The notes under the pieces are model-generated. The model had not been told where the DNA came from. It ran no database searches and saw only the letters and a program-made list of their open reading frames with translations. Made by a program: the position numbers and the translations under genes. This document shows, one piece after another, positions 14,021 through 38,791 of a stretch of DNA of 64,000 bases (positions are counted from its first letter, which is position 1; each line of letters starts with the position of its first letter). Source of the stretch: Spirochaetia bacterium (GTDB lineage Bacteria; Spirochaetota; Spirochaetia; SZUA-6; Bin103); contig OZ241863.1 of NCBI GenBank assembly GCA_965203055.1, forward strand, positions 448,001-512,000, in the 5' to 3' direction.

Positions 14021-14092
14021 GCGCCTGTCGTATAACGGTCATTACCCGAGCCTTCCAAGCTCGTGATGGCGGTTCGATTCCGCTCGGGCGCT
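14021..14092 (+). tRNA. tRNA-Gly(TCC)
   Basis: Acceptor stem GCGCCTG/CGGGCGC, anticodon arm CGAGC-CTTCCAA-GCTCG, T-loop TTCGATT; followed by CTA, so CCA is not encoded. Confidence 0.95.
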
Positions 14093-19431: not shown

Positions 19432-19499
19432 CCGCTACAGGATAGCACGGCGGCGGCGGCTCGACGAAGTGGCCGCCCGGCCCTATGCTGGCAGCGGTG

Positions 19500-21257
19500 A
19501 TGAGTAACGCTCCTCCGCAGATACCCTACGGCTGGGCCGACTTCCGGATGATACGCCGCGAGCGCGCCCTGTACGTCGACAAGACCCGGTTTCTGCATGA
19601 CCTGGAGCAGGAGCGGTACGCCTTTCTGATCCGCCCGCGGCGCTTCGGCAAGTCGTGCTGGGTGTCGCTGCTGGCGTACTACTACGACCGCGCGCGCGCC
19701 GACCGCTTCGCCACCCTGTTCGCCGGCACCGACGTCGGGCGCCGGCCGACGCCCAACCGCCACCGGTACGTGATCCTGCACTTCGACTTCTCCGCCTTCG
19801 ACGACACCCTGGAGACGCTGCGCGAACGGTTCGAGATCTACTGCTTCATCAAGCTGCGCGCGGCGCTGGAACGGAATCGGGATCTGTTTCCACAACCGGT
19901 AATCGATCGCATCCTGGCGCACCCGGCCATCGACGGTCGCCTGAACGAGCTGTTCTCCTACGCCGGCGAGCAGGGCATCCCGCTGTACGTGCTGATCGAC
20001 GAGTACGACAACTTCGCCAACACCGTGCTGGCCTGGCATGGCGCCGAGGCGTACCATTCCTTCACCCACGGCGGCGGCTTCTACCGCAACTTCTTCGCCA
20101 CCCTCAAGGCCGGCGCCGGCTACGGCGGCGGCATCGAACGCCTGTTCGTCACGGGCGTCTCTCCCATCACCATGGACGACGTGACCAGCGGCTTCAACAT
20201 CGGCGCCAACATCAGCCTGCGCCAGAGGTTCAACGAGCTGCTCGGCTTCACCGGGGCGGAGGTACGCGGCCTCCTGGAGAGCTATCGGGACCACGGCGTA
20301 TTCGATCAGGACGTCGACGAGGCGATGGCCGTGATGGGCGAGTGGTACAATGGCTACCGGTTCGCCGAGGACGCCGCGAACGATATCTACAACACCGACA
20401 TGGTGCTCTACTACCTTAAGGCATCGATCCCGAACGATCGTCCTCCGCGCGAACTGATCGACACCAACGTGCGGATCGACTACGGCAAGCTGCGTCACCT
20501 GCTGACGGTCAACCGGCAGCTCAACGGCAACTTCGACCTGCTGCGCCACGTCATCGGCGAAGGCTGGGCGGACAGCGAAATCACGAGCGGCTTCCCGCTG
20601 GAGCGGCTGCAGGAGCGGGAGAACTTTCTGTCGCTGCTGCACTTCTTCGGGCTGCTCAGCATCCGCGAGGCGCGCGCCGGCATGCCCCGGCTGGGAATAC
20701 CGAATCAGACCGTCAAGCGGCTGATGTACGGCTACCTGCGCGACGGCTACCGCGACGTCGGCGTGTTCTCGGTGGACCTGTACGCCTTTGCCAACCTGGT
20801 GCACGAGATGGCGCACCGCGGCGCCTGGCGGCCGGTGCTGGAGTTCCTGGCGGGCGCGATCTCCCGGCAGAGCAGCATCCGCGACTACATCGACGGCGAG
20901 AAGGTGATTCAGGGGTTCCTGGCCGCATACCTGAGCTGCACCGATCACTTCGTGTTCCACTCCGAGCGGGAGCTGGGCGGCGGCTACGCCGACATCTGCC
21001 TGGAACCTCACCTGCAGCGCTACGCCGGCATGCGCCACGGGTACGTGATCGAACTGAAGTATCTGACGCGGCGGGAAGGAGCGAACGCGGCGCAGGTCGC
21101 GCAGGCGGCGCGGCAAGCCGCCGCGCAGGTAGGGCGCTACCTGGCCGATGAACGCCTGGCGCGCCAGTATCCGGCGGTGGGCTTCACCGGACTGGCCGTC
21201 GTGTTCCACGGCTGGGAGCTGGCGCACTGCGCCGCCGTATCCGCCGCGCGCGGCTAA
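19500..21257 (+). CDS. AAA-ATPase-like protein with C-terminal PD-(D/E)XK nuclease domain
   Basis: IPYG..DF..IR....YVDKT, RPRRFGKS, LIDEYD, FVTGVSP; C-terminal SERELGGGYADI..VIELKY. Confidence 0.88.
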   Translation: MSNAPPQIPYGWADFRMIRRERALYVDKTRFLHDLEQERYAFLIRPRRFGKSCWVSLLAYYYDRARADRFATLFAGTDVGRRPTPNRHRYVILHFDFSAFDDTLETLRERFEIYCFIKLRAALERNRDLFPQPVIDRILAHPAIDGRLNELFSYAGEQGIPLYVLIDEYDNFANTVLAWHGAEAYHSFTHGGGFYRNFFATLKAGAGYGGGIERLFVTGVSPITMDDVTSGFNIGANISLRQRFNELLGFTGAEVRGLLESYRDHGVFDQDVDEAMAVMGEWYNGYRFAEDAANDIYNTDMVLYYLKASIPNDRPPRELIDTNVRIDYGKLRHLLTVNRQLNGNFDLLRHVIGEGWADSEITSGFPLERLQERENFLSLLHFFGLLSIREARAGMPRLGIPNQTVKRLMYGYLRDGYRDVGVFSVDLYAFANLVHEMAHRGAWRPVLEFLAGAISRQSSIRDYIDGEKVIQGFLAAYLSCTDHFVFHSERELGGGYADICLEPHLQRYAGMRHGYVIELKYLTRREGANAAQVAQAARQAAAQVGRYLADERLARQYPAVGFTGLAVVFHGWELAHCAAVSAARG

Positions 21258-24196: not shown

Positions 24197-24973
24197 TTAT
24201 TCGACTTCCATGATCTCGGGATCGAGCTGATACCAGAACACGGCTCCGGCATCGATGCTGTCGCCGATGCGGTCATCTCGCCGCATGCCTGACACCACGG
24301 CGTAGGCGTTCCGGCCCGTGAATCGGGTAAGGAAATCCGCGTTGCGGAGCGCCCGGGTCGTATCCCTTCCGTTGGCGGTGTAGGAGATCTCCACGGCGAC
24401 GTAGCAGGATTCGCCTGCCTCATCGGTCGCCTCCATGATCAGGTCGGCTCTTCGGAAGCTGCGCAGGTCGGCGCGGTCGATCGCGGTCGTGTCGGCGCGG
24501 TCGGTCAGCTCCCATAGATCATCGTGCGTCAGCGTCTTCGTGCGCCGCAAACCCAGGTCCCGAGCGATGGTGGAAGCCTCCGCGACCGCCGCATTTCTGG
24601 CATGGGCGCCTTTGAGGACGCCCAGGTCGTCCATCATCCTGTCGGTCTTGGTCTCCAGACGATCGAAGCGACGATCGGTAGCGGCGATGAAGCTATGCAC
24701 TTCCTCGCGGAGTGCAACCTGTTGTTCGGCCAACTCGGAGAGCCGCTCGCCCAACGCCGAGAGCCGTTCGGTCAACGCCGAGACCTGTTCGGCCAACGCC
24801 GAGACCCGCTCGGTCAACGCCGAGACCCGTTCGGCCAACTCCGAGACCCGCGCCGGCAGCTCGAGCAGTTCACGCGTGAGTATCCGGGATCGGAGGGCTT
24901 CCAGCCACTGCGGATGCCGGTCCAGCAGTGCGATCAGGTCTTCTATCGTATCGACGGCGTTCGTCGCGGGCAT
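24197..24973 (-). CDS. Hypothetical protein: heptad coiled coil plus putative PD-(D/E)XK-like C-terminal domain
   Basis: VSALAE[RQ]-type heptads; ADLIMEATD..YVAVEIS..DTTRA. Confidence 0.65.
   Translation of the reverse strand: MPATNAVDTIEDLIALLDRHPQWLEALRSRILTRELLELPARVSELAERVSALTERVSALAEQVSALTERLSALGERLSELAEQQVALREEVHSFIAATDRRFDRLETKTDRMMDDLGVLKGAHARNAAVAEASTIARDLGLRRTKTLTHDDLWELTDRADTTAIDRADLRSFRRADLIMEATDEAGESCYVAVEISYTANGRDTTRALRNADFLTRFTGRNAYAVVSGMRRDDRIGDSIDAGAVFWYQLDPEIMEVE
24735..24850 (-). repeat. 21-nt tandem repeats encoding coiled-coil heptads
   Basis: About five copies of CAAC[GT]CCGAGA[CG]C[CT]G[CT]TCG on the + strand. Confidence 0.85.
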
Positions 24974-25032
24974 CTTGGCAAACAACTCCGGGGCGGTCGT
25001 CACGACCACCATAGCAGGTTCCGACCGTAAGC

Positions 25033-25885
25033 GCCAATCTGCAGCAGGTGTTGGGGAGCCGTAGCGGCGCCCGCTGGTGCGGTCCACGTAGCGGCCGCGG
25101 TCGCGCCGCCGCACCTCGCGCTTGACCGCCGCCGGGATAGCGCGGCCGGTCACGCCTGTCTTCGGCGCCGAAGTGGCGTCGGTCGCCGGCTTCGCTGCCG
25201 AAGTGACCGGGCGGTCAGCGGCTTCGTCTCCCGGCTGCGCCGGCGCCTGAGCCGATACCTTCGCCGCCGAAGGAGCGGCGCTGTCCGCGCCGGCCTCCTG
25301 CTTCGCTGCCGAGGCAGCGCCGCGAGCCGAGGCTGCCTGCGTCTTCGCCGCCGAAGTTTGCTCGGCGCCTTTGGCCGGCGCGGCGCGCCGCCCGGGCCGG
25401 ATCGTGGCGGTCGAGCCCTTCCCGCACCAGCCGCCCCATGAACTGCCCCAACGTCAGGTGCGGGTCAACGTGGGACAGGAGGCCCTTGAGCCGCTCCAAG
25501 CCCCGCCGGTACTCATCGTCGATCACCGCCTTGAGTTCCCAGCGCCCGCCGCCCAGCGGCCGCACCCGATCCGCCGGCGCCGCCAGCTCCGGGTCCACCT
25601 CGGCCAGCACTGCATCACCTGCCGGCTGCTCTTGCCGGACGCCTGCTCCACCAAGTCCCGCCGCGCCTCCGAGTTCAGCACCGGCGCCGGCACCGGCTTC
25701 CGCTCCGCCGGCTTCCGCTCTGCCGAACGCGGCGGCGCCGAGCCCTCCTGCGACTGAGCGGCAGCCCCGCACCCGGCCCCGCGCGGCGCGCTACGCGCCG
25801 CGCGTTCCTTCTTGCGCTCCTGCCGGTCGAACGCATGCTGCAACTGCGCGGCCGCTTTCAGCGTCATCGTGCCATTCTGCAGTAT
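25033..25885 (-). pseudogene. Frameshifted, truncated HNH-endonuclease-family gene
   Basis: Pieces in several frames: AAAQLQHAFDRQER..EQASGKSSRQV / LAEVDPELAAPADRVRPLGGGRWELKAVID..LLSH / RAIPAAVKREVRRRDRGR..GRRYGS / QHLLQI, ending before the HNH core. Confidence 0.65.
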
Positions 25886-26080: not shown

Positions 26081-26155
26081 GCCGCTTCTCAGGGGTAGTA
26101 TGCTCGGTCTGCGGGTCCGTTGGGTCCTAACTCTTGTTCGGGAGGAATGAGTCGT

Positions 26156-26371
26156 ATGTCACAACACGTCGTTTCACGAGATGGCAAGTGGGCGGTGCGC
26201 AGGGGCGGTGCCGATCGCGTTACGCGACGTTTCGACACGCAACGTGAAGCCATCGACGCTGCACGTGAGCTTGCCCGTAAGCAGAAAACCATATTGTACA
26301 TCCATGGAGAGGATGGCAGAATTATAAAGCGAGACTCTTATGGGGAGGACCCATTTCCACCGAAAGGGTAA
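26156..26371 (+). CDS. DUF2188 family protein
   Basis: QHVV..DGKWAVR..GA.R....FDTQREAI..AR..A......LYIHGEDGRI..RDSYGEDPFPPKG. Confidence 0.9.
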   Translation: MSQHVVSRDGKWAVRRGGADRVTRRFDTQREAIDAARELARKQKTILYIHGEDGRIIKRDSYGEDPFPPKG

Positions 26372-26918: not shown

Positions 26919-26990
26919 GCATTCAGCGCCGCCGGAAGGAGTTCCCCGCTACCCAGGCTGGACGAAAGCTCCCGGTAAGCATCCGGCGGC

Positions 26991-28954
26991 CTAATCGGCC
27001 AGCTCCACCAGAAGCTGTTTGCCGGCCAGCGTCTGGCGCGCCCAATAGAGGTTCTGGTACTGATCGTAGCCGCCCTCTGCCAGCTTGGCCGTGCCGGTCG
27101 CGGTGGTGCCGCTGGCCGGCGCCGAAAAGGTCACGGTTGGGGCAGATTGGTAGCCGCTTCCCCCGTTCGTGACCGTCACCGACGCTACGCGCAGGGCCGC
27201 GGTGCCGGCGGCCGTGGTGCCGCCGCCCGGCGCCGCGCCGAAGGTCACGGTCGGGGCGGAGGTGTAGCCGCTCCCCCGGTTCGTGATCGTCACCGACGCT
27301 ATGCCGTAGCGCAGCACCGCGGTGCCGGCGGCGGTGGTGCCGCCGCTCGGCGCTGCGCCGAAGGTCACGGTGGGGGCGGAGGTGTAGCCGCTCCCCCCGT
27401 TCGTGATCGTCACCGACGCTACGCCGTAGCGCAGCACCGCGGTGCCGGCGGCGGTGGTGCCGGCGCCCGGCGCTGCGCCGAAGGTCACGGTCGGGACAGA
27501 GGTGTAGCCGCTTCCGGGGTTCGTGATCGTTACCTCCGCTACGCCGCTTTGCAGCACCGCGGTGCCGGTTGCCGTGTACGCGCTGCCCGTCGGCGAGGCC
27601 GAAAACGTCACGGAAGGGGCAGCCGTGTAGCCGCTCCCCGGGTTCGTGATCGTCACTGCCTCTATTCTGCTGGTTCTCAGCGTCGCGGTGCCGGCCGCAC
27701 CGCTGCCCCCTCCGCCCGAAAACGTCACGGATGGGGCGGTAGTGTAGCCGCTCCCCCGGTTCGTGATGCTTATGGTTAGCACTTGACCGCCGTGTATCGT
27801 CGCTGTTCCCGTTGCCCGGGTGCCACCGGACGGCGGAGCGCCAAACGTCACGGTTGGGGCCGACGTGTAACCGGTCCCAAAATTCGTCATCGTCACGCCG
27901 TCTAATTCGGTTCGCCGCGTTGCGGCGCCGGTCGCCGTGGTGCCGCCGGGCGGCGGCGCGCTGAACGTCACGGTCGGGTCAGAGGTATAGAATAGCCCCC
28001 GGAACGTGAGAGTCACTGCCGCTACGCCGCTTTGCCGCACCGCGGTGCCGGTGGCCGTGGTGCCGCCGGCCGGCGCCGCTCCGAACGTGACGCTGGGAAC
28101 CGACGTGTAGCCGCTCCCGGCGGTCCCGACCGTCACCGAATCGACGTACCTGGACCCAACGACGGTGCCGGTTGCCGTGGCGCCGCCGGCCGTCGGCGCT
28201 CCGAACGTGACGCTGGGAACCGACGTGTAGCCGCTTCCTGCAGTTCCCACCGTCACCGAATCGACGGTACCGGAGCCCACCACCGCGGCGCCGGTTGCCG
28301 TGGCGCCGCCGGCCGGCGGCGCCCCGAACGTCACGCTGGGAACCGTCGCGTAGCCGCTCCCTGCGGTCCCGACCGTCACGGAATCGACGGAGCCGACTGC
28401 GGCGCCGGTTGCCGTAGTGCCGCCGGCCGGCGGCGCCTCGAACGTGACGCTGGGAACCGACGCATAGCCGCTCCCCGGGTTCGCTATCGTGACCGATTCA
28501 ACCGTGTCGGAGGCGCCCGACTGATCCGGGGCGGTGAGCACCAGCGCCACCGCGCCCGCCCGGACGTCCGCGGTAACCGTCCACTCCGCGCCGGAGATGT
28601 CGGACGCGAAGACCGGCTTGGCGCTCGTGCTGGTGAACGGCAGCTCGTGCCCGCCAATCGAAACGCGCGCGCTGCCGCCGGTGAGCCGCTCCCAGGCATA
28701 CGGCGCGGAACGGCTGGACACGGCGCCCGTCAGGTTCGGTTCATCATCGCCAAAGTCAGCCGCGTTGATCGTCCAGCGCTTCTCCGCCGGCGCTGCCGGC
28801 TGCGGGGTTGGCGCGGGCTCGGTCGGCGGTTTACCCCCCCCCCTGAAGCCGGGTCGGCGGGCGCGGCGGCCGGGCGCGCCGCCTGGGAACAGGCCATCAG
28901 CGCGGCGATGCCGGCGGCCAGCAACAGCAATAACGGCGGCGATACCTTACTCAC
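26991..28954 (-). CDS. Repeat lipoprotein copy A, frameshifted at G10 (654 aa if G11)
   Basis: GGAGG RBS and GTG 28954; lipoprotein signal ..IAALMAC; G10 at 28834-28843; adding one G gives an open frame GKPPTEPAP..NLTGAVSSRSAPYAW into the 576-aa repeat ORF. Confidence 0.85.
27080..28502 (-). repeat. 12 tandem ~120-nt (~40-aa) repeats VxxVTxTNxGSGYTSxPTVTFxAPxxGGTTATGTA
   Basis: Counted in the translation; near-identical nucleotide units at 27180-27540. Confidence 0.95.
28834..28843 (-). repeat. Poly-G10 tract (candidate phase-variation switch), copy A
   Basis: C10 on the + strand, between the signal peptide and the body of the gene. Confidence 0.9.
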
Positions 28955-28992
28955 GATTCCTCCGGTGGCGTGTCCGCCCGTCGATCCGTCGA

Positions 28993-29325
28993 TCATGGTA
29001 GCACGGCTACGCTATGGGCGGTTTCGTGCGAATCTGCGGACGATTGAGACTCGGATGCGGGCATCCCCAACTCGTTCTCGATGCGCGCCAGGCGATCAGC
29101 CACGGCAACACGTAGATCGTCTACCTTCTCATCAAGCGCGTCGATACTACCCTCAATCTTGGCTATGTCGGCGCGGGCCTCGGCGATGGTCACGCTGGTT
29201 GCCTTCACGTCGCCGGATAGGTCGCCGATCTTACCGCTCAATACCCAGGCGGCACCGACGATAGCGATAACGACGGTCACCACCACACCGACGGCGGTAA
29301 CTATCAGGGTCTTGTTCTCACTCAC
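28993..29325 (-). CDS. Small membrane-anchored coiled-coil protein
   Basis: AGGAGG RBS and GTG start; N-terminal TM (LIVTAVGVVVTVVIAIVGAAWVL) then heptad pattern. Confidence 0.7.
   Translation of the reverse strand: MSENKTLIVTAVGVVVTVVIAIVGAAWVLSGKIGDLSGDVKATSVTIAEARADIAKIEGSIDALDEKVDDLRVAVADRLARIENELGMPASESQSSADSHETAHSVAVLP
28995..29003 (-). promoter_or_regulatory. Putative extended -10 element (TGcTACCAT) of copy A
   Basis: Identical element sits upstream of copy B (31503-31511) at the edge of the duplicated segment. Confidence 0.45.
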
Positions 29326-29397
29326 GGTCCACCTCCTGCCAGAACGGCAACAGGCAAGGCGGCCAACCTGCGGCCGCGTGATTCATGGCGCCAGCAT

Positions 29398-29478
29398 ACC
29401 ACGGCGCCAGATCCGCGGCAAGAAGATCGATATCAACGACAGCCTGTGGCTGGCTCGCATCTGCCAATTTGGTCTTTC
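29398..29478 (+). mobile_element. IS110-family transposase fragment
   Basis: RQIRGKKIDINDSLWLARICQFGL resembles the IS110 KTDxxDAxWLA motif. Confidence 0.6.
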
Positions 29479-29509
29479 ACAGCAAAGCTCCGGGTCGCTA
29501 GCCGGCGGC

Positions 29510-31470
29510 CTAATCGGTTAGCTCCACCAGAAGCTGCTTGCCGGCCAGCGTCTGGCGCGCCCAATAGAGGTTCTGGTATTGATCGTAGCCGCCCGAGGCC
29601 AAGTTCGCCGTGCCGGTCGCGGTGGTGCCGCTGGCCGGCGCCGAAAAGGTCACGGTCGGGGCAGATTGGTAGCCGCTTCCCCCGTTCGTGACCGTCACCG
29701 ACGCTACGCGCAGGGCCGCGGTGCCGGCGGCCGTGGTGCCGGCGCCCGGCGCCGCTCCGAAGGTCACGGTGGGGGCGGAGGTGTAGCCGCTCCCCCCGTT
29801 CGTGATCGTCACCGACGCTACGCCGTAGCGCAGCACCGCAGTGCCGGCGGCGGTGGTGCCGCCGCTCGGCGCTGCGCCGAAGGTCACGGTTGGGACAGAG
29901 GTGTAGCCGCTCCCCCCGTTCGTGATCGTCACCGACGCTACGCCGTAGCGCAGCACCGCGGTGCCGGCGGCGGTGGTGCCGGCGCCCGGCGCTGCGCCGA
30001 AGGTCACGGTTGGGACAGAGGTGTAGCCGCTCCCAGGGTTCGTGATCGTTACCTCCGCTACGCCGCTTTGCAGCACCGCGGTGCCGGTTGCCGTCTGGGA
30101 GTTGAGGCCCGATGCTGCGCCGAAGGTCACGGTCGGGGCAGAGGTGTAGCCGCTTCCGGGGTTCGTGATCGTCACTTCCAGTATTCTTCTGGCCCATACA
30201 TACGCGGTGGCGACGGCGCCGCTGCCCCCTCCTCCCGAAAACGTAACGGTCGGGCGGGAGGTGTAGCCGCTCCCCCGGTTCGTTATGGTTACGCTGAGCA
30301 CACCACCGCCCTGTATCGTCGCGGTTCCGGTTGCCTGCGTGCCACCGGCCTGCTGCGGAGCGCCAAAGGTCACGGTTGGGGCGGACGTGTAACCGCTCCC
30401 CGCGTTCGTAACGAGCACGGTAAATAGTTCGGGCCGGCGCGTTGCGGTGCCGGTCGCGGTGGTGCCGCCGGACGGCGGAGCGCTGAACGTCACGGTCGGG
30501 TCACCATTTGGATAGTTCCCGTTGATCACCATCGTCACTGACGTTACGCCGCTTTGCAGCACCGCGGTGCCGGTTGCCGTGGTGCCGCCGGACGGCGGCG
30601 CTCCAAACGTGACGCTGGGAACCGACGTGTAGCCGCTCCCGGCGGTCCCGACCGTCACCGAATCGACGTACCTGGGCCCAACGACGGTGCCGGTTGCCGT
30701 GGCGCCGCCGGCCGGCGCCGCTCCGAACGTCACGGTGGGAACCGACGCATAGCCGCTTCCTGCAGTTCCCACCGTCACCGAATCGACGGTACCGGAGCCC
30801 ACCGCGGCGCCGGTTGCCGTAGTGCCGCCGGCCGTCGGCGTCCCGAACGTCACGGTGGGAACCGACGCGTAGCCGTTCCCGGCGGTCCCGACCGTCACGG
30901 AATCGACGGAGCCCGCCGCGGCGCCGGTTGCCGTGGTGCCGCCGGCCGTCGGCGCCCCGAACGTGACGCTGGGAACCGACGCATAGCCGCTTCCCGGGTT
31001 CGCTATCGTGACCGACTCGACCGTGTCGGAGGCGCCCGACTGATCCGGGGCGGTGAGCACCAGCGCCACCGCGCCCGCCCGCACCTCGGCGGCAACCGTC
31101 CACTCCGCGCCGGAGAGATCGGACGCGAAGACCGGCTTGGCGCTCGTGCTGGTGAACGGCAGCTCGTGCCCGCCAATCGAAACGCGCACGGCGCCGCCGG
31201 TGAGCCGCTCCCACGCATACGGCGCGGAACGGCTGGACACGGCGCCCGTCAGGTTCGGTTCATCATCGCCAAAGTCAGCCGCGTTGATCGTCCAGCGCTT
31301 CTCCGCCGGCGCTGCCGGCTGCGGAGTTGGCGCGGGCTCGGTCGGCGGTTTACCCCCCCCCCTTGGGCCGGGTCGGCGGGCGCAACGGCCGGGCGCGCCG
31401 CCTGGGAACAGGCCATCAGCGCGGCGATGCCGGCGGCCAGCAACAGCAATAACGGCGATACCTTACTCAC
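29510..31470 (-). CDS. Repeat lipoprotein copy B, frameshifted at G10 (653 aa if G11)
   Basis: GGAGG RBS and GTG 31470; ..IAALMAC signal; G10 at 31353-31362; same frame relationship as copy A. Confidence 0.85.
29597..31021 (-). repeat. 12 tandem ~40-aa repeats, copy B
   Basis: Same unit as in copy A. Confidence 0.95.
31353..31362 (-). repeat. Poly-G10 tract (candidate phase-variation switch), copy B
   Basis: C10 on the + strand. Confidence 0.9.
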
Positions 31471-31699
31471 GTTCCCTCCGGTGGCGTGTCCGCCCGTCGG
31501 TCATGGTAGCACGCGCCCCCCAAGCTGACCACCCGTCCCCGCGCGGGCGTGGGCGGGCGCGCCGCTCCGGTGGTCGCCTGCGGGTCGATCGGCTATCATG
31601 CGAGGCGAGATGAGCGAGTTCCCGGAGCGGATGGCCGGTCAGCGCGATCCCGGCGTCCCTGCGCAGACCCCGCGCGAGCGCTGCCGGCCCTGACCGGCC

Positions 31700-33160
31700 A
31701 TGCAGCCGCGCACGCGCTTCATCCTCAACGACCGCGAGGTTGAGACCGCGGCCCCGGCCGGGCTGCTGCTGCTCGACTACCTGCGCGCCGGCGCGCGCCT
31801 GACCGGCACCAAGGAGGGCTGCAAGGAGGGCGACTGCGGCGCCTGCGCGGTCCTGATCGGGGAGCTTCAGGGCGGCGCCGTCCGCTACCAGCCGGTCACC
31901 TCCTGTCTGGTGCCGCTGGCCGAGGCGCACGGCGCGCACGTGGTGACCATCGAAGGGTGCAATCCGGCGGTCGGGCTCGACCCCGTGCAGCGCGCGGTGG
32001 TCGAGCACGGCGGTACCCAGTGCGGGTTCTGCACCCCCGGCATCGTGGTGTCGCTGCACGGGCTGCTGCTCGACCGGGACAAGGGACTCTCGATCGACGA
32101 CGTCAAGTACGCCCTGAGCGGCCACCTGTGCCGCTGCACCGGGTACCGCTCGCTCAAGGACTGCGCCGCCACGCTGGAACGGGAGCTGGGCGGCCGGCTC
32201 GACGCGCGCGGCAGCGATCGGGTGGCGGCGCTGGCGGCCGCCGGAGCGATTCCCGATTACTTCACGACGATCCCGGAACGGTTGCGGGCGCTCCGGGAGG
32301 AAGAGCCGGCCGGCAGCGGCGCCGCCTCCGGCCCGGCGCCGGAGGTGCGCATCGCCGGCGGCACCGACCTGTACGTGCAGCGGGGCGAGGAGATCCCGGA
32401 CCGCCGCGTCGAGGTGTTGGGCCGGCGCCGGGAGCTGAAGGGCATCCGCCGCGCCGGCGGCGAGTTTCGCGCCGGCGCCTTCACCACCTTCGAGGAGTTC
32501 GGCGCCCACCCGGCGGTGAACGCCGCGATTCCCCGCATCGCGGCGTTCAATCACCTGATCGCCTCCTGGCAGATCCGCAACCGCGCCACCCTGGCGGGCA
32601 ACATCGTCAACGCCTCGCCGATCGGCGACTTCACCGCCCTGCTGCTGGCGTTGGACGCCAGCATCGTCCTGGCCGGCGGCGGCGGCCGGCGCTCGGTACC
32701 GCTCAAGGAGTTCTACCGCGGCTACAAGCAGCTCGACCTGCGGCCCGGCGAGCTGCTCACCGAGGTGAGGTTCCCCGATCCGGCCGGCGCGCGGGTCAAC
32801 TTCGAGAAGGTCTCCAAGCGCACCTGCCTCGACATCGCCTCGGTCAACGCCGCCTGCTCGATCCGCTGCGCCGGGGACGGCGACACCATCGCCGAAGCGC
32901 ACTTCAGCCTGGGCGGCGTGGCGCCGGTGCCGCTCTACCTGCGCGCGGCCTCGCAGGCGGTGCGCGGCCGCGCCCTCGACCCGGACACGGCGCGGGAGGC
33001 GCTACGCCTTGCGGACGGGGAGATCGCGCCGATCTCCGACGTGCGCGGATCGGCCGCCTACAAGCGGCTGCTGGCGCGGCAGTTGCTGATCGCCCACTTC
33101 GTCACCCTCTTTCCCGAGCGCTTCACCGCCGAGGCGTTCCTGGCGGGCGGCACGCCGTGA
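31700..33160 (+). CDS. xdhA: Xanthine dehydrogenase small subunit (2Fe-2S and FAD)
   Basis: GTKEGCKEGDCGAC, QCGFCTPG, GHLCRCTGY, AGGTDL, IRNRATLAGNIVNASPIGD, KVSKR..LDI. Confidence 0.95.
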   Translation: MQPRTRFILNDREVETAAPAGLLLLDYLRAGARLTGTKEGCKEGDCGACAVLIGELQGGAVRYQPVTSCLVPLAEAHGAHVVTIEGCNPAVGLDPVQRAVVEHGGTQCGFCTPGIVVSLHGLLLDRDKGLSIDDVKYALSGHLCRCTGYRSLKDCAATLERELGGRLDARGSDRVAALAAAGAIPDYFTTIPERLRALREEEPAGSGAASGPAPEVRIAGGTDLYVQRGEEIPDRRVEVLGRRRELKGIRRAGGEFRAGAFTTFEEFGAHPAVNAAIPRIAAFNHLIASWQIRNRATLAGNIVNASPIGDFTALLLALDASIVLAGGGGRRSVPLKEFYRGYKQLDLRPGELLTEVRFPDPAGARVNFEKVSKRTCLDIASVNAACSIRCAGDGDTIAEAHFSLGGVAPVPLYLRAASQAVRGRALDPDTAREALRLADGEIAPISDVRGSAAYKRLLARQLLIAHFVTLFPERFTAEAFLAGGTP

Positions 33161-35412
33161 CGCACGTCGACTCGCACCTGCACGTGCGCGGCGAATCGCA
33201 GTACGTGGACGACGCGCCGCCGCCGCCGGGGATGCTGCACGCCGCGGTGTTCGGCTCCCCCAAGGCGCACGGCGTCATCACCCGGCTCGCCGCCGACCGG
33301 GCGCGTGCGGCCCCCGGCGTGGCGGCGGTGCTCACCGCGGCCGACATCCCCGGCGTCAACCGCTTCGGCCCGATCATCGAGGACGAGCAGTTGCTGGTGG
33401 AGCGCGAGGTCTGCTTCATCGGCCATCCCATCGCCGTCGTGGTCGCCCGCAGCGCGCACCGGGCGCGGCAGGCGCGCGACCTGATCGAGGTCGAGATCGA
33501 CGACCTGCCGGTGGTGGTCGACCCGCGCGCGGCGTTCGCGCGCGGCGACCTGATCCATCCGCCGCGCACCATGGCGATGGGCGACGTGGCCGGCGCCTGG
33601 CGGGAGTGCGCGCTGGTGGTGGAGGGGCGCTGCGAGATCGGCGGCCAGGAGCATCTCTACCTGGAGACGCAGCGCTGCCGCGCGGTCCCCCTGGAAGACG
33701 GCGCGATCCGGGTCTTCTCCTCCACCCAGGGGCCGGCCGCGGTGCAGCACGTGACCGCGGCCGTGCTCGGCAAGCCGATGCATCAGGTGGAGGTCGACGT
33801 GAAGCGGCTCGGCGGCGGCTTCGGCGGCAAGGAGGACCAGGCCACCCACTGGGCGGCGATGGCGGCGCTGGCCGCCGCGCATCTGGACGCGCCGGTGGAG
33901 CTGGTGCTGAACCGGCCGGACGACATCAGGATGACCGGCAAGCGCCATCCCTACTCCGCCGACTTCAAGATCGGCCTGACCGCGGACCGCAAGATCCTCG
34001 CCTACGAGGCGACCTTCTATCAGAACTCCGGGGCGTTCGCCGACCTCTCCCCGCCGGTGCTGGCGCGCACGCTGTTCCACGCTACCAACGCCTACTTCAT
34101 CCCCAACGTGCGGGTGACCGCGGCGCCGTGCCGCACCAACCTGCAGCCGCACACCGCCTTTCGCGGCTTCGGCGGGCCGCAGGGGATGTTCGTGATCGAG
34201 GCCGCGATCAACAAGGCGGCCGACGCGCTGGGGATCGAGGCGGCGGCGATCCAGCGCGCCAACCTGCTGCGCGACGGCGACCGGTTCCATTACGGCCAGC
34301 GGGTGGAGGCGAGCCGCGCCGAGCGGACCTGGGACGAGCTGACGGCGGCCTTCGCGGTCGATGCGATCCGGCGGCGGGCGGCGGCGTTCAACCGCGCCAA
34401 CTTCGCGGTCAAGAAGGGCTGCGCGCTGATGCCGGTCTGCTTCGGCATCTCCTTCACCAAGAGCCACCTCAATCAGGGCAACGCGCTGGTCCACGTCTAC
34501 GCCGACGGCAGCGTGAGCGTGACCACCGGCGGCATCGAGATGGGGCAGGGCATCAGCAGCAACGTCGCCGCGGTGGTGGCGCGCACCTTCGGCATCGAGC
34601 CGCGGCGGGTGCGGGTGGAGAGCACCAACACCACGCGGATCGCCAACATGTCGCCGAGCGCCGCCAGCGCCACCACCGACCTGAACGGCAACGCCGCGGC
34701 CATCGCCGTCGAGACGATTCTCCGGGGCATGCGGGAGGTGGCGGCCGGGGAGCTGGGCGCGGCGGAACCGGGCGCGGTGACCATCGCCGGCGAGCGGGTG
34801 CGCGTGGCCGGCGAGCCGGCCGGCATGAGTTGGCAGGACCTGGTGGGCCTCACCTACCGCGCGCGCCGGCGGCTGTCGGCGCACGGCTACTACGCCACGC
34901 CCGGCCTCCACTACGACGAGGAGCGCGAGCGGGGGCGGCCGTTCGCCTACCACGTCTACGGCGCCGCCGTGTTCGAGGTGACCGTCGACTGCCTGCGCGG
35001 CACCTGCGCCGTGGATCAGGTGAAGATCGTCCACGACCTGGGCCGCTCCATCAATCCGAGCGTCGACCGCGGCCAGGTCGAAGGCGGGCTGGCGCAGGGC
35101 ATGGGCTGGATGACGCTGGAGGACCTGCAGTGGGACCGGGAAGGCCGCTGCCTCTCCCACGCGCTGTCGACCTACAAGGCGCCGGACGTCTACTTCATGC
35201 CGGACGACATGGCGGTCAAGTTCCTGGAACCGGAGCGCAACCCCTACGGTCCGCTCGGCGCCAAGGCGGTCGGCGAGCCGCCCCTGATGTACGGCATCGG
35301 CCTGTTCTTCGCCATCCGCAACGCGATGAAGGCATTCCGCCCCGGCGCCGACCTCCGCCTCGACGCCCCCATGACCCCGGAACGCGTGCTGCTCGACCTG
35401 CACCCCGGATGA
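33157..35412 (+). CDS. xdhB: Xanthine dehydrogenase molybdopterin-binding subunit
   Basis: GTG overlaps the xdhA stop; GGQEHLYLE, KRLGGGFGGKE, TAFRGFGGPQG, GGIEMGQG, KAVGEPPLM. Confidence 0.96.
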   Translation: MTHVDSHLHVRGESQYVDDAPPPPGMLHAAVFGSPKAHGVITRLAADRARAAPGVAAVLTAADIPGVNRFGPIIEDEQLLVEREVCFIGHPIAVVVARSAHRARQARDLIEVEIDDLPVVVDPRAAFARGDLIHPPRTMAMGDVAGAWRECALVVEGRCEIGGQEHLYLETQRCRAVPLEDGAIRVFSSTQGPAAVQHVTAAVLGKPMHQVEVDVKRLGGGFGGKEDQATHWAAMAALAAAHLDAPVELVLNRPDDIRMTGKRHPYSADFKIGLTADRKILAYEATFYQNSGAFADLSPPVLARTLFHATNAYFIPNVRVTAAPCRTNLQPHTAFRGFGGPQGMFVIEAAINKAADALGIEAAAIQRANLLRDGDRFHYGQRVEASRAERTWDELTAAFAVDAIRRRAAAFNRANFAVKKGCALMPVCFGISFTKSHLNQGNALVHVYADGSVSVTTGGIEMGQGISSNVAAVVARTFGIEPRRVRVESTNTTRIANMSPSAASATTDLNGNAAAIAVETILRGMREVAAGELGAAEPGAVTIAGERVRVAGEPAGMSWQDLVGLTYRARRRLSAHGYYATPGLHYDEERERGRPFAYHVYGAAVFEVTVDCLRGTCAVDQVKIVHDLGRSINPSVDRGQVEGGLAQGMGWMTLEDLQWDREGRCLSHALSTYKAPDVYFMPDDMAVKFLEPERNPYGPLGAKAVGEPPLMYGIGLFFAIRNAMKAFRPGADLRLDAPMTPERVLLDLHPG

Positions 35413-37592
35413 GCATCGAACGCGACTTCGACGTTCCCATGATCGCCGGCCTGGCGCTGCGGGAGAAGCAGATACAGCAGAACTACCGTCCGGTCATTGG
35501 CGTTCACAAGTGGTTTGCGCGCCGTCCCGGCACGCTGTTCCGCGGCCTCCTGCTGGCCGAATTCGGAACCGGCCCATTGCAAGACACGTTCTTTGCCGGC
35601 AATGACTTGCTCGGCCGGCGCATCGCCGACCCGTTCATGGGCGGCGGCACGCCCCTGATCGAGGCGAATCGACTCGGCTGCGACGTGCAGGGATTCGACG
35701 TCAATCCGATGGCCGCCTGGATCGTACGCGAGGAGATCGACCATCTCGATCTGGCCGCGTACGGACGGGCCGCCGGGAGCCTGGTCGACACGCTGCGCGG
35801 CGAGATCGGGCCGTACTACCGCACCTTCTGCCCGCGTTACGGCGACGCCGAGGTGCCGGTGAAGTCGTTCCTGTGGGTCAAGACGCTCGCCTGCGCGGGG
35901 TGCGGCGAGTCGATCGATCTGTTCCCCGGATACCTGCTGGCGGCGAACCGGCGCCACCCGACCAACGTGCTCGTCTGCGCCGCGTGCGGCGATCTCAACG
36001 AGGTAGCGGACCGCGACGATCCAGGGGGATGCGCTGCCTGCGGCCGCGCGCTCCGGTTGACGGGGCCGGCGCGCAGAGGCCGCTGCGATTGCCCCCGTTG
36101 CGGGCATCCGAACCCCTATCCGGGCAAGTCCGGCCGCCCCTTGCAGCATCGCCTGTTCGCCATCGAATACCACAATCACCGGCGGAAGGGCGAGCATCGG
36201 GGACGCTTCTTCAAGCGGCCCGACGCGGACGACCTGGCGCGCGCGAACGCGGCCGGCGAACGCTGGCGGCGGCTTGCGCCGCGCTTCGTCCCCGACGACG
36301 CGATCCCGCCGGGCGACGAGACCGGCCGACTGCACCGCTGGGGATACACCCGCTACCGCGACCTGTTCAACGGGCGCCAGCTTCTCGGTCTGGAGTTGAG
36401 TTGCCGCCTCGTTTCCCAGGTCGAGGACCGGCGGTTGCACCGCGCGCTGGCAACCAATCTGTCCGATCTGTTGCGCTATCAGAACCTGCTCTGCCGCTAC
36501 GATCCCATGGCGCTCAAGGCGCTGGACATCTTTTCCGTCCATGGCTTCCCGGTAGGATTGATCCAGTGCGAGTCCAACCTGCTCGGGATTACCGGTGAGA
36601 ACGGGGCAAACGTCGGCTCCGGCGGTTGGACCAACATCATCGACAAGTACGCCAAGGCGAAACGCTATTGCGCCGCGCCGTTCGAGGTGCGCCGCCACGG
36701 CGCGCGCAACCTGCAGGTGCCGATTACCGGTGAGTGGATCGGCGAGCAGCGCGACGGCCGGCGGCGGGCGGTGGGCATTCGTTGCGCCGACGCGACGCAG
36801 GTGGAGCTTCCGGCCCGCAGCCTCGATGCCGTGTTCACGGATCCGCCCTACTTCGGCAACGTCCAGTACGGCGAGCTGATGGACTTCTGCTACGTATGGC
36901 TCCGCCGGCTGGCCGGCAACCGAGCCGATGGCTTCGACCGCCGTTCCACGCGGTCACCGCGAGAGCTGACCGGGAACACCACCGGGGAACGCGGCCTCGA
37001 TCATTTCACCGAAGGACTTGCCGGCGTCTACACGCGCATGGCCCGCGCCTTGAAGCCGGGTGCGCCGCTGGCGTTCACGTTCCATCACAACAAGCTGGAA
37101 GCCTACTACGCCGTCGGAATCGCGATTCTCGATGCCGGGCTGGTCTGTTCGGCGTCGCTGCCATGCCCGGCCGAAATGGGAGGTTCGATCCACATCCACG
37201 GCACCGGATCGTCGATCATCGACACCGTGTTCGTATGCCGCGCTACCGGTACGGTGCCGCGCCGCTGGCTGGCCGGCACCTCGGAGGAGGTCGCGGCCCT
37301 CGTTGCCAAAGACGTCACCTTGCTGGAGGCTGCAGGCCGCACGCCTACTCGCGGCGATACCCGGTGCATGGTCTTTGGTCATCTGACCCGTCTGGCGGCG
37401 TGGAATCTGAGGCGCAGTTGGGACGTGAACCTGCCCACCGCGCAGAAGGCGGCCACGTTCGCGGCAGCCGTTGCCCACATGGGCGCCCCGGAGGCGATCA
37501 TTGCAGCCGTGCTTCCGGCCGCCGCGTCACCGGGGCCGCTCTTCGCCGCGGCGCTACACGACCAGGAAGATCACTATGCCGTTCCCTTTTGA
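35409..37592 (+). CDS. Amino-DNA methyltransferase with Zn-ribbon insert (DUF1156-like)
   Basis: ATG overlaps the xdhB TGA; VHKWFARRP, DPFMGGGT (motif I), four CxxC pairs, TDPPYF (motif IV). Confidence 0.85.
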   Translation: MSIERDFDVPMIAGLALREKQIQQNYRPVIGVHKWFARRPGTLFRGLLLAEFGTGPLQDTFFAGNDLLGRRIADPFMGGGTPLIEANRLGCDVQGFDVNPMAAWIVREEIDHLDLAAYGRAAGSLVDTLRGEIGPYYRTFCPRYGDAEVPVKSFLWVKTLACAGCGESIDLFPGYLLAANRRHPTNVLVCAACGDLNEVADRDDPGGCAACGRALRLTGPARRGRCDCPRCGHPNPYPGKSGRPLQHRLFAIEYHNHRRKGEHRGRFFKRPDADDLARANAAGERWRRLAPRFVPDDAIPPGDETGRLHRWGYTRYRDLFNGRQLLGLELSCRLVSQVEDRRLHRALATNLSDLLRYQNLLCRYDPMALKALDIFSVHGFPVGLIQCESNLLGITGENGANVGSGGWTNIIDKYAKAKRYCAAPFEVRRHGARNLQVPITGEWIGEQRDGRRRAVGIRCADATQVELPARSLDAVFTDPPYFGNVQYGELMDFCYVWLRRLAGNRADGFDRRSTRSPRELTGNTTGERGLDHFTEGLAGVYTRMARALKPGAPLAFTFHHNKLEAYYAVGIAILDAGLVCSASLPCPAEMGGSIHIHGTGSSIIDTVFVCRATGTVPRRWLAGTSEEVAALVAKDVTLLEAAGRTPTRGDTRCMVFGHLTRLAAWNLRRSWDVNLPTAQKAATFAAAVAHMGAPEAIIAAVLPAAASPGPLFAAALHDQEDHYAVPF

Positions 37593-38646
37593 GGTCAGCT
37601 TCGCAGAGATTCGGGCTGATCCGGATGCTTACGTGGACGCGGTGTTCGGCGCTCTCCATTCCGAGTTCATGCTGATGCCCCGCGGCAAGGGATTCGTGGA
37701 GTTCAACACGTTCGAAGCAGGCTACGAGACGTTGAAGCGGGCCACCGCGGGTTTCCGGGACGTCACTCCGGAGACCGTCACGCGAGCGATATTCGAAGTG
37801 CCGGTGACGCTGTTGGTGCTGCGCTGCATTCTCGGCTTCACTCCCTCTGAGTGGGCCGCTTACGCGACGGGCTACACCGGCGTCGAGATCACCCAGGGTG
37901 CGGCGCGAACCATTGACCGCGCAGTCCGAATAAACCCGGGAGCAGCCCTTACGGGGCGAGGAGCGGTGACCGAAGACCGAGTCCGGGCACTGGTCGCCGC
38001 CGCCTGTCATCTTCTTGAATCCGGAGTGCCGGTGGACGTTCCTCACGACAGCCTCCACCGATTCGACAAGGCCGATACCAGAGAGGGACTTTCCGGTGTC
38101 CGCTTGATGGCGGACTTGGGTGTCCCCTATTCCATGCTGTTGTATGAGCGTTTCCTGGGCCGGCCGTTTGCCGCTCACCGCGATTCCGTGAGTGAGCTGG
38201 TCGGAAACCTGGTTGAGAGCGCCATCGAAGACGTGCTGACCCGCGCCGGGATCAGCTTTCGCAAGACCGGACGAGCGGAGCGGCTGCCGGGATTCGATCA
38301 GGCTCCCGACTTCGTCATCCCCAACGAGTTCAACCCGCAGATCGTGATCGAGGCCAAGCTCACCGAAGACGACGGTACGGCACGCGACAAAGTCACGCGC
38401 GTCCAGCACCTGGCCTCGCTCGGCGCCGAAGGCCGTCCTTCCGAACAGCCGGCATTCGAAGTAGTCGCCTGCATCGCCGGCCGGGGCTTTGGCGTACGCC
38501 GCGAAGACATGCGCAAGCTGTTGCTCGCCACCCGAGGCAAGGTCTTCACGTTGCAGAACATCCGGCAACTCGTGGAGCACACCCGCCTCCGTGAGTTCCG
38601 CACACGGTCAGATCATCGCCCCCGACCCGACGGACCGTCAGGCTGA
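37576..38646 (+). CDS. Putative PD-(D/E)XK restriction endonuclease
   Basis: APDFVIP..IVIEAKLTEDDGTARDK; overlaps the end of the methylase. Confidence 0.75.
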   Translation: MPFPFEVSFAEIRADPDAYVDAVFGALHSEFMLMPRGKGFVEFNTFEAGYETLKRATAGFRDVTPETVTRAIFEVPVTLLVLRCILGFTPSEWAAYATGYTGVEITQGAARTIDRAVRINPGAALTGRGAVTEDRVRALVAAACHLLESGVPVDVPHDSLHRFDKADTREGLSGVRLMADLGVPYSMLLYERFLGRPFAAHRDSVSELVGNLVESAIEDVLTRAGISFRKTGRAERLPGFDQAPDFVIPNEFNPQIVIEAKLTEDDGTARDKVTRVQHLASLGAEGRPSEQPAFEVVACIAGRGFGVRREDMRKLLLATRGKVFTLQNIRQLVEHTRLREFRTRSDHRPRPDGPSG

Positions 38647-38791
38647 GGTGCTTTATCCGGGGGAAGTGCCATGTAGTTGGCTGCGACGAGTGGACGTTCA
38701 GTTGGCGAAGACCATGGAAGATATCTGTGGTGCGCTGGCGGTGTTCAAACGGGACGTATCGGTCCGACACACACCGGAGGTGTTCGAATGA
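38612..38791 (+). pseudogene. C-terminal stub of a DarT-like (DUF4433) DNA ADP-ribosyltransferase
   Basis: PTDRQAEVLYPGEVP matches the DarT QAExL catalytic strand; no N-terminus; its stop overlaps the next ATG. Confidence 0.6.

Follow-up and report, generated by a model that had tools for sequence, protein, structure and literature searches.

Tandem lipoprotein genes divided by poly-G tracts in a sponge-associated spirochaete: probable phase variation, and a family of close relatives in a second genus

Introduction

In the genome of an uncultured, sponge-associated Spirochaetia bacterium (GenBank assembly GCA_965203055.1), two tandem genes each carry a lipoprotein-type signal peptide that is separated from a long repetitive body by a run of ten G residues, with the body lying in another reading frame. 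They occupy positions 26,991–31,470 of the window, by which we mean the whole stretch of 64,000 nucleotides analysed here (contig OZ241863.1, positions 448,001–512,000, numbered from its first base). Are such genes reversible ON/OFF switches, ordinary genes that have been misread, genes expressed by recoding, or the remains of genes? A preliminary description of the locus, made from its letters, had proposed two independently switchable surface proteins, both OFF in the assembly consensus. The evidence below makes it likely that they are a phase-variable lipoprotein pair, switched by replication slippage at the G tract. Switching would be reversible within a population, and the two switches would act independently. 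The genes also belong to a family whose closest known counterparts are found in a different genus.

Two tandem genes are each divided by a G10 tract

Both genes are read from the minus strand. Copy 2 has a ribosome-binding site (RBS) GGAGG at 31479–31475, a GTG start at 31470, a lipoprotein signal peptide with its Cys codon at 31410–31408 and the start of a linker (31363–31479 in all); the G10 tract (31353–31362) puts these out of frame with a body of 613 amino acids (aa; 29510–31351) made up of a Pro-rich linker, a family-specific N-terminal domain (N-domain), 12 repeats of ~40 aa and a conserved C-terminal segment. Copy 1 is laid out likewise, with RBS GGAGGA at 28963–28958, a GTG start at 28954, the Cys codon at 28891–28889 and the linker start (28844–28963 in all), an out-of-frame G10 tract (28834–28843), and a 613-aa body (26991–28832) in which the N-domain occupies ~28781–28512, the repeats ~28510–27126 and the C-terminal segment 27125–26991. 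From the base after the tract onwards, 613 codons of the body frame are free of stops in both copies. The tract begins 111 nt (copy 1) or 108 nt (copy 2) past the start codon and 48 nt after the lipobox Cys codon, with 16 linker codons between LMA-C and G10, and its length sets the frame. The two tracts, which read as C10 on the forward strand, are the only runs of at least eight in the window, and each is followed by TAAAC.

The RBS, the GTG start, the ..IAALMAC signal and the G10 tract followed by TAAAC were thus all found as first described. With G10 the product is a short Arg-rich peptide, as had been claimed: 74 aa for copy 1 (28730–28954) and 73 aa for copy 2 (31249–31470), whose Arg-rich tail is the shifted frame of the Pro linker. 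G9 would lead to TAA at once, again as claimed, and G11 or G8 would join the two frames; the length of 653–654 aa given for the joined product fits G11 only (654 and 653 aa), frame arithmetic yielding 653 and 652 aa for G8. Because G10 leaves the 613-aa body out of frame, both copies are indeed OFF in the consensus.

Spirochaetal lipoproteins are recognized, according to PMC2063517, by a hydrophobic leader and a lipobox with a small residue at –1, followed by Cys. The signal of the window genes, LLLLLAAGIAALMA-C, has such a leader and lipobox, and a custom script found the signal in 31 of the 32 paralogs described below. The proteins are presumably lipidated and exposed at the surface, where they might make contact with host or phage; a periplasmic location is possible.

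Upstream of copy 2 a promoter-like site was read by eye on the minus strand (31503–31531), consisting of TGGTCA, a 17-nt spacer and an extended –10-like TGcTACCAT, and it may act as a promoter. Similar boxes were seen by eye upstream of many paralogs. Copy 1 retains the extended –10-like box TGcTACCAT (28995–29004, minus strand) and has no counterpart to the –35-like box seen in copy 2. A G6 run (31514–31519) lies inside the spacer of copy 2, and since the spacer of the matching gene in a related genome (G011, below) has the same length with G5, this run is no evidence of a second switch. Internal initiation at a body GTG (28721 or 31240) was considered as a route to expression and rejected on inspection by eye, as these codons lack RBS-like sequence and starting there would lose invariant N-domain residues.

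The two copies form a tandem duplicate of ~2.0 kb (26965–29005 and 29484–31513), 90% alike overall and 97% alike around the tract. The equal tract length in both is a consequence of this duplication, and not evidence of a designed length. The ends of the duplicate are 91–98% alike and the five central repeat segments 79–84%, so that divergence is fastest in the centre of the repeat array. The central repeat segments (27600–28200 and 30100–30700) are also the most divergent parts among copy 1, copy 2 and the G011 gene (70–90%). In the central repeats copy 1 is nearer to the G011 gene and at the C-terminus copy 2 is nearer, a pattern suggestive of mosaic exchange.

Tract and reading frame are linked across a family of paralogs

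The genome (hereafter G000) is a single contig of 4,557,819 bases with 68.8% G+C. A profile search with the N-domain gave 32 matches in it, two of them being the window genes. Eleven of the 32 have a linker G run between lipobox and body, with lengths of 8, 8, 10, 10, 10, 10, 11, 12, 12, 14 and 16, and in seven of these the body is out of frame with the signal, leaving four in frame. All 20 signal-bearing copies that lack a linker G run are in frame; the remaining copy is a fragment without a signal. Tract and frame are therefore linked (7/11 versus 0/20 out of frame; Fisher p = 1.3e-4, the paralogs not being independent). When the G-run genes of G000 and G011 are pooled, 5 of 19 are ON, which is compatible with the one-third expected if only one length in three restores the frame. 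TAA follows the G run directly in 9 of the 11 copies.

Runs of this kind are far in excess in the genome. There are 37 G/C runs of at least 10, compared with ~0.5 expected by geometric extrapolation from runs of 5–7, and by hand count 20 of the 37 are located at the 5' end of this one lipoprotein family. The bodies behind the out-of-frame tracts are mostly sound: a conserved C-terminal motif ends six of the seven OFF bodies in G000 and six of seven in G011, so that 12 of 14 are intact across the two genomes.

Among the 20 G000 copies that lack a linker G run, 11 have a C run of 10–20 upstream, before the signal (contig positions 915268, 1219860, 1278063, 1280465, 1550247, 1848431, 1934289, 2515961, 2701487, 3281683 and 4123447). 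In nine of the 11 no stop interrupts the signal frame between run and signal, and in four an upstream start reads through in frame; several also have a downstream start with an RBS of its own. From their placement these C runs look like a second switch position. They are often preceded by TA and followed by ATAG, ATGA or ATAA, and two follow a start that overlaps the stop of the previous gene.

Other long G/C runs, among those listed, lie at or near the 5' ends of genes judged by eye to be solute-binding-protein-like, permease-like or other lipoprotein-like ones and of an open reading frame (ORF) of 6037 codons. The sites at contig positions 321991, 936440, 1376196, 3747245, 3986337, 3128447, 1429985, 628747, 1667450 and 1891480 are candidate switches on a genome-wide scale, which might extend to nutrient uptake.

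Tract length differs between genomes

The N-domain profile matched five of the 24 genomes of the taxonomic family: G000 and G010, which belong to one genus, and G011, G012 and G015, which belong to another. A search of 41 genomes across the order gave no further matches. A GTDB scan returned 43 loci, all in four Spirochaetia metagenome-assembled genomes, and all 47 matches in a region-limited protein search came from ENA/NCBI assemblies or from G000; none of the 392 candidates in a scan of metagenome contigs was confirmed. Matching DNA was also found in public runs, some of them labelled sponge metagenome or marine metagenome; near-identical pieces occur in X8 and X13.

In G011, where 22 rows were scored (20 plus 2 regions, two of them without signal, loci L037, L038, L039 and L042 having been dropped by the alignment filter), eight genes have a linker G run of 12–22, and seven of the eight are out of frame. 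Upstream C runs are present in 14 of 18 rows of G010 and in 8 of 10 rows of G012.

Comparison with homologs in related genomes, which the preliminary description had put forward as a check, bears directly on copy 2. Its G10 tract corresponds to G18 in the G011 gene that lies beside the same xanthine dehydrogenase (xdh) operon; the ~400 flanking bases are near-identical, with ~10 substitutions and no other gap, and both genes are OFF. At other matched loci we found G12 (ON) against G21 (OFF), G11 (ON) against G22 (OFF), G14 (ON) against G13 (OFF), and G10 against G12. Where exact 12-nt flanks were used to match runs between G011 family loci and G000, the length was equal in 260 of 261 runs of 4–6 and differed in all four of at least 9. 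The background comparison of run lengths is thin (83 runs, none longer than 6) because the core DNA of G011 is too distant, and it was through this that the sharing described below came to light.

In-frame, full-length forms were also found in other assemblies. The called protein of a G16 OFF paralog, P0020, clusters at 90% with the full-length P0126, which has the signal and eight Gly residues. The ON/OFF pairs come from paralogous loci, and none of the ON alleles is assignable to the two window loci themselves; P0016, with three Gly and the window's junction in frame, and P0004, with four Gly, are close in-frame relatives.

Phase variation and its alternatives

We propose that each gene is a contingency locus, in which the G run would sit in a linker flexible enough to tolerate additional Gly codons. 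Replication would add Gs to the run or remove them. One length in three (8, 11, 14 and so on) would fuse signal to body and give a lipid-anchored rod of 12 beta repeats, and the others would give TAA at once (9, 12 and so on) or a short frameshifted peptide (10, 13 and so on). With 11 G-run genes, 11 upstream-C genes and divergent central repeats, clones would display different proteins. The tract–frame link within the family, the length differences at matching loci, the intact OFF bodies and the in-frame relatives elsewhere bear out the original proposal of phase variation at a slippery G tract.

Several observations weigh against this interpretation. The five family copies of G015 have no tract at all, so the lipoprotein does not need a switch. 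Tract 1 is not bridged by any of the contigs listed; tract 2 is spanned, with G10 and no difference, by a public contig of 192 nt (X1) that may derive from the source sample and has a depth of 3.4. A contig with 11 C (X2, with 10 other letters different) and a 9-C variant (X8) are not assignable to the window loci, and the four public runs compared, as contigs only, showed no mixture of lengths at one locus. The ratio of non-synonymous to synonymous substitution rates (dN/dS) is noisy and confounded by recombination (0.23–0.97 in 10 tract pairs, 0.22–1.7 in five tract-free pairs). MutS and MutL are present in G000 with intact reading frames. Lastly, G10 slipped much less than G11 in Bifidobacterium breve, according to PMC9187656. 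A mismatch-repair defect that would provide a mutator background was considered and rejected, MutS and MutL being intact.

The genes might instead be truly in frame, and the long runs miscalled by one base in the consensus. G000 is a single 4.56-Mb contig, probably a long-read assembly, and errors of this kind would likewise leave about one third of the genes in frame. Miscalling should show itself at other homopolymers. Frame-shift calls at coding G/C runs of 4, 5, 6 and 7 were flat with length, however, at 10/971, 15/2030, 7/283 and 0/27; with calls of 0–2.5% at these lengths the assembly is not generally homopolymer-prone, most longer runs being beyond the method, which could judge only three of 49 runs of at least 8. 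In addition, X1 reproduces G10 at tract 2, the differences of 8–11 G between genomes exceed a one-base miscall, and consensus error leaves unexplained why 20 of 37 long runs should lie at the 5' end of one family. We consider it quite unlikely that miscalling accounts for the two tracts.

If the DNA stays at G10, the full-length protein might be made by –1 ribosomal frameshifting or by slippage of RNA polymerase. G10 does occur in 4 of the 11 G000 tracts, and the 74 nt past tract 2 fold better than shuffled sequences (z –2.18). For the corresponding 74 nt of copy 1 the value is z –0.73, so that conservation of the downstream structure is doubtful, and a programmed –1 site, which would have a fixed offset and a conserved slippery sequence across homologs, is not what the family displays: the offset is –1 for G10, G13 and G16, +1 for G12 and G18, and none for G8, G11, G14 and G20, and the sequence next to the run differs among copies (TAAA, TAAG, TAAT, AAGC, CCAA follow it). 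Occupation of all three frames and the lack of a conserved TAAAC context speak against the –1 frameshifting that the preliminary description had held in reserve, and of the three alternatives we give programmed recoding the least credence. A low level of slippage during transcription may accompany the switching at the DNA.

Decay at a mutation hot spot would mean that a chance G run arose from Gly codons and that the OFF copies, in a family with redundant members, became pseudogenes only recently. Breaks at other places are seen in some copies (e.g. at contig positions 4091555, 2415577, 2814931 and 1936135), and dN/dS of 0.45–0.62 in several pairs indicates weak constraint; for the window copies it is 0.45–0.57, a modest constraint, and genes with a tract do not exceed those without one, within the noise. 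Decay is nevertheless hard to reconcile with the 12 of 14 OFF bodies that are intact, with loci whose state, ON or OFF, differs between assemblies (G12/G21, G11/G22, G14/G13, P0020 versus P0126), and with a second type of tract, poly-C before the signal, in the same lipoprotein family in four genomes. We think it improbable, much as we do consensus error, and retain phase variation by slippage at the DNA as our explanation.

The repertoire is shared across a genus boundary

Core genes pair G000 with G010 (MutS 88%, N-terminal part of MutL 89%) and G011 with G012 and G015 (88–93%), with 53–56% identity between the groups; MutS of G000 is 54% identical to that of G011. The lipoprotein family is distributed differently. 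The median best N-domain identity of G000 copies is 95% to G011 and 60% to the congener G010, and for 30 of 31 G000 copies a match of at least 85% exists in G011, a level that none of the copies reaches with G010, G012 or G015 (rows used: G000 31/32, G011 26/29, G010 18/22, G012 10/~25, G015 5/5). A second cross-genus pair was found, in that 12 of 18 G010 copies and 9 of 10 G012 copies match each other at a median of 91% (loci L048–L060 and L081–L101). A quick, unrooted tree (90 rows by 99 columns, with 39 of 87 forks open) has G000/G011 and G010/G012 as sister pairs throughout. The G010/G012 version of the repertoire is switched mostly by upstream C runs.

At the DNA level, 13 of 17 G011 loci match G000 at 92–99% and four at 72–82%. 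Several of the shared blocks start just 5' of the promoter boxes, some finish exactly at the stop codon or close to it, and the DNA on either side is unrelated. Sharing extends beyond the family: in a sample of 20 spread pieces of 20 kb each, 57 kb out of 400 kb of G011 DNA (~14%) match G000 at 90% or more and 36 kb at 95% or more, compared with 2.6 of 400 kb (0.6%) and none, respectively, for G012 as control. For the congener G010, none of the 120 kb sampled reached 90% identity to G000. By eye, the shared blocks hold restriction-modification and other defence genes, transposases, metabolic operons and a repeat surface protein; examples are L138:9848–14642, L157:8697–16293 and 31520–35400 of the window. 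This last, on the plus strand upstream of copy 2, comprises intergenic DNA and an xdh-type operon; it is 99% identical in G011, where it is joined to the matching lipoprotein gene, and the operon is 88% identical in G010.

The plain reading of these identities is that large-scale transfer between the genera probably took place recently. A chimeric assembly was considered as the cause of the sharing and is hard to square with identities of 92–99%, and not 100%, at many separate sites. If there was such transfer, the G011 loci are transferred counterparts and not vertical orthologs, and the public contigs may come from either genus.

A broader proposal, which we hold tentatively and with slightly more doubt than belief, is that spirochaetes of two genera in the same host share one repertoire of some 25–30 randomly switched surface lipoproteins by repeated horizontal transfer, each of the two independent cross-genus pairs having a version of its own. 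It would then be the niche in the host, and not the lineage of the bacterium, to which the variable coat belongs, and its genes would often travel together with their promoters, in a common pool of DNA that includes defence systems. The pattern of sharing is observed; co-residence, a direction and a route of transfer, and any role in host recognition or phage evasion are supposition. One study of a different sponge system (PMC11410982) describes gene transfer between symbiont species as largely blocked.

Repeat body, fold and homology

Neither body could be assigned to a family in searches of Pfam and NCBIfam, and the signal and N-domain were without a match there. The ~40-aa repeat matches the phage virion protein profiles PHROG 460, 5342, 701 and 708, with E-values down to 1e-57. 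The likeness to phage virion proteins is confined to the repeats, and we do not take the genes to encode virion or tail proteins, PHROG matching the repeats only and the neighbours scanned being Xdh, XdhC, DUF2188 and AAA/PD-(D/E)XK proteins. The ESM Atlas returned only unnamed viral clusters at 0.87, at most a lead.

An AlphaFold2 model from a 42-row alignment is nearly all-beta, with a predicted local distance difference test score (pLDDT) of 71, a predicted template-modelling score of 0.44 and four low-confidence stretches; the N-domain and C-terminal segment are confident. Foldseek found nothing at E ≤ 0.001 with this model, and in a VIA fold comparison the best Z was 6.3. Residues 254–370 of the model align with residues 99–188 of the T4 gp18 sheath domain (Z 6.0, root-mean-square deviation 2.8, 74 residues), a likeness that, with Z under 8, may reflect a common arrangement only. 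In a fold-back test of residues 1–90 against 560–596 the score was 0.47 and that of the best control 0.02, with contacts agreeing in at least 94% and a partner pLDDT of at least 62; scores of 0.60 or less form a tier in which 18 of 157 solved complexes passed, as did both passing mismatches, and the tool grades it as weak support. The test thus weakly supports a chain folded back so that its ends form one base. The protein might function as an adhesin or a decoy.

Relation to known systems

The switch itself is an ordinary, known mechanism, and the cross-genus sharing is the interesting part. The Vaa adhesin of Mycoplasma hominis is a lipoprotein. Its switch, as described in PMC524362, works like that of the window genes but uses poly-A, in a single gene per isolate. 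The closest layout is that of the pilins bbr_0113ab and bbr_1889ab of B. breve UCC2003, a host-associated non-pathogen: according to PMC9187656 these likewise have their secretion signal encoded by a short ORF upstream and their body in another frame beyond a tract of G11 or G10, are annotated as split genes, and yield ON alleles by slippage. They differ in being sortase-anchored pilins at two loci with switching that was measured, whereas the window genes belong to an unrelated 32-copy lipoprotein family whose switch is deduced from sequence. The tpr genes of Treponema pallidum are, as here, a spirochaete multigene surface family under poly-G length control; in tpr, according to PMC3656149, the tracts lie in promoters and affect transcription, and the proteins are predicted to reside in the outer membrane, whereas the tract described here is coding and follows the lipobox.

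A literature search, which covered neither supplements nor most subscription papers, gave no paper dealing with this lipoprotein family, with phase variation among spirochaetes of sponges or with such cross-genus sharing, and the word 'lipoprotein' occurs 0 times in the main text of PMC11656744. The present genes would extend a textbook mechanism of the pathogen type to an uncultured sponge-associated spirochaete, in which the distribution of an entire set of switchable surface proteins follows the partner genome in the other genus. They also illustrate how gene calling misses the signal peptide when a tract divides the gene. Should our interpretation be right, tract lengths would be a direct read-out of the proteins selected in each sponge, and the family a concrete gene set for testing if a surface repertoire held in common is shaped by recognition of the host or by pressure from phages.

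Other features of the window

Between the two copies, outside the duplicated unit, lies an ORF of 110 aa (28993–29325, minus strand) that is single-copy in the genome and has a hydrophobic N-terminus and a coiled-coil-like part; its weak matches to Rz-like spanin profiles (E 4e-6) probably reflect only a membrane helix and a coil. An ORF of 318 aa (24197–25153, minus strand) contains 21-nt tandem repeats, i.e. 7-aa coiled-coil units, at 24702–24869. Its 3' part directly follows the single lipoprotein copy of G011, so that the DNA between this ORF and the duplicate is extra in G000. Also present are an AAA-ATPase/PD-(D/E)XK gene (19485–21257), a DUF2188 gene (26120–26371) and, by eye, a methyltransferase-like ORF followed by a nuclease-like one (35200–38650); Pfam gave no match for 37471–38643. 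A tRNA gene (14021–14092, plus strand) is the only Rfam match in the window.

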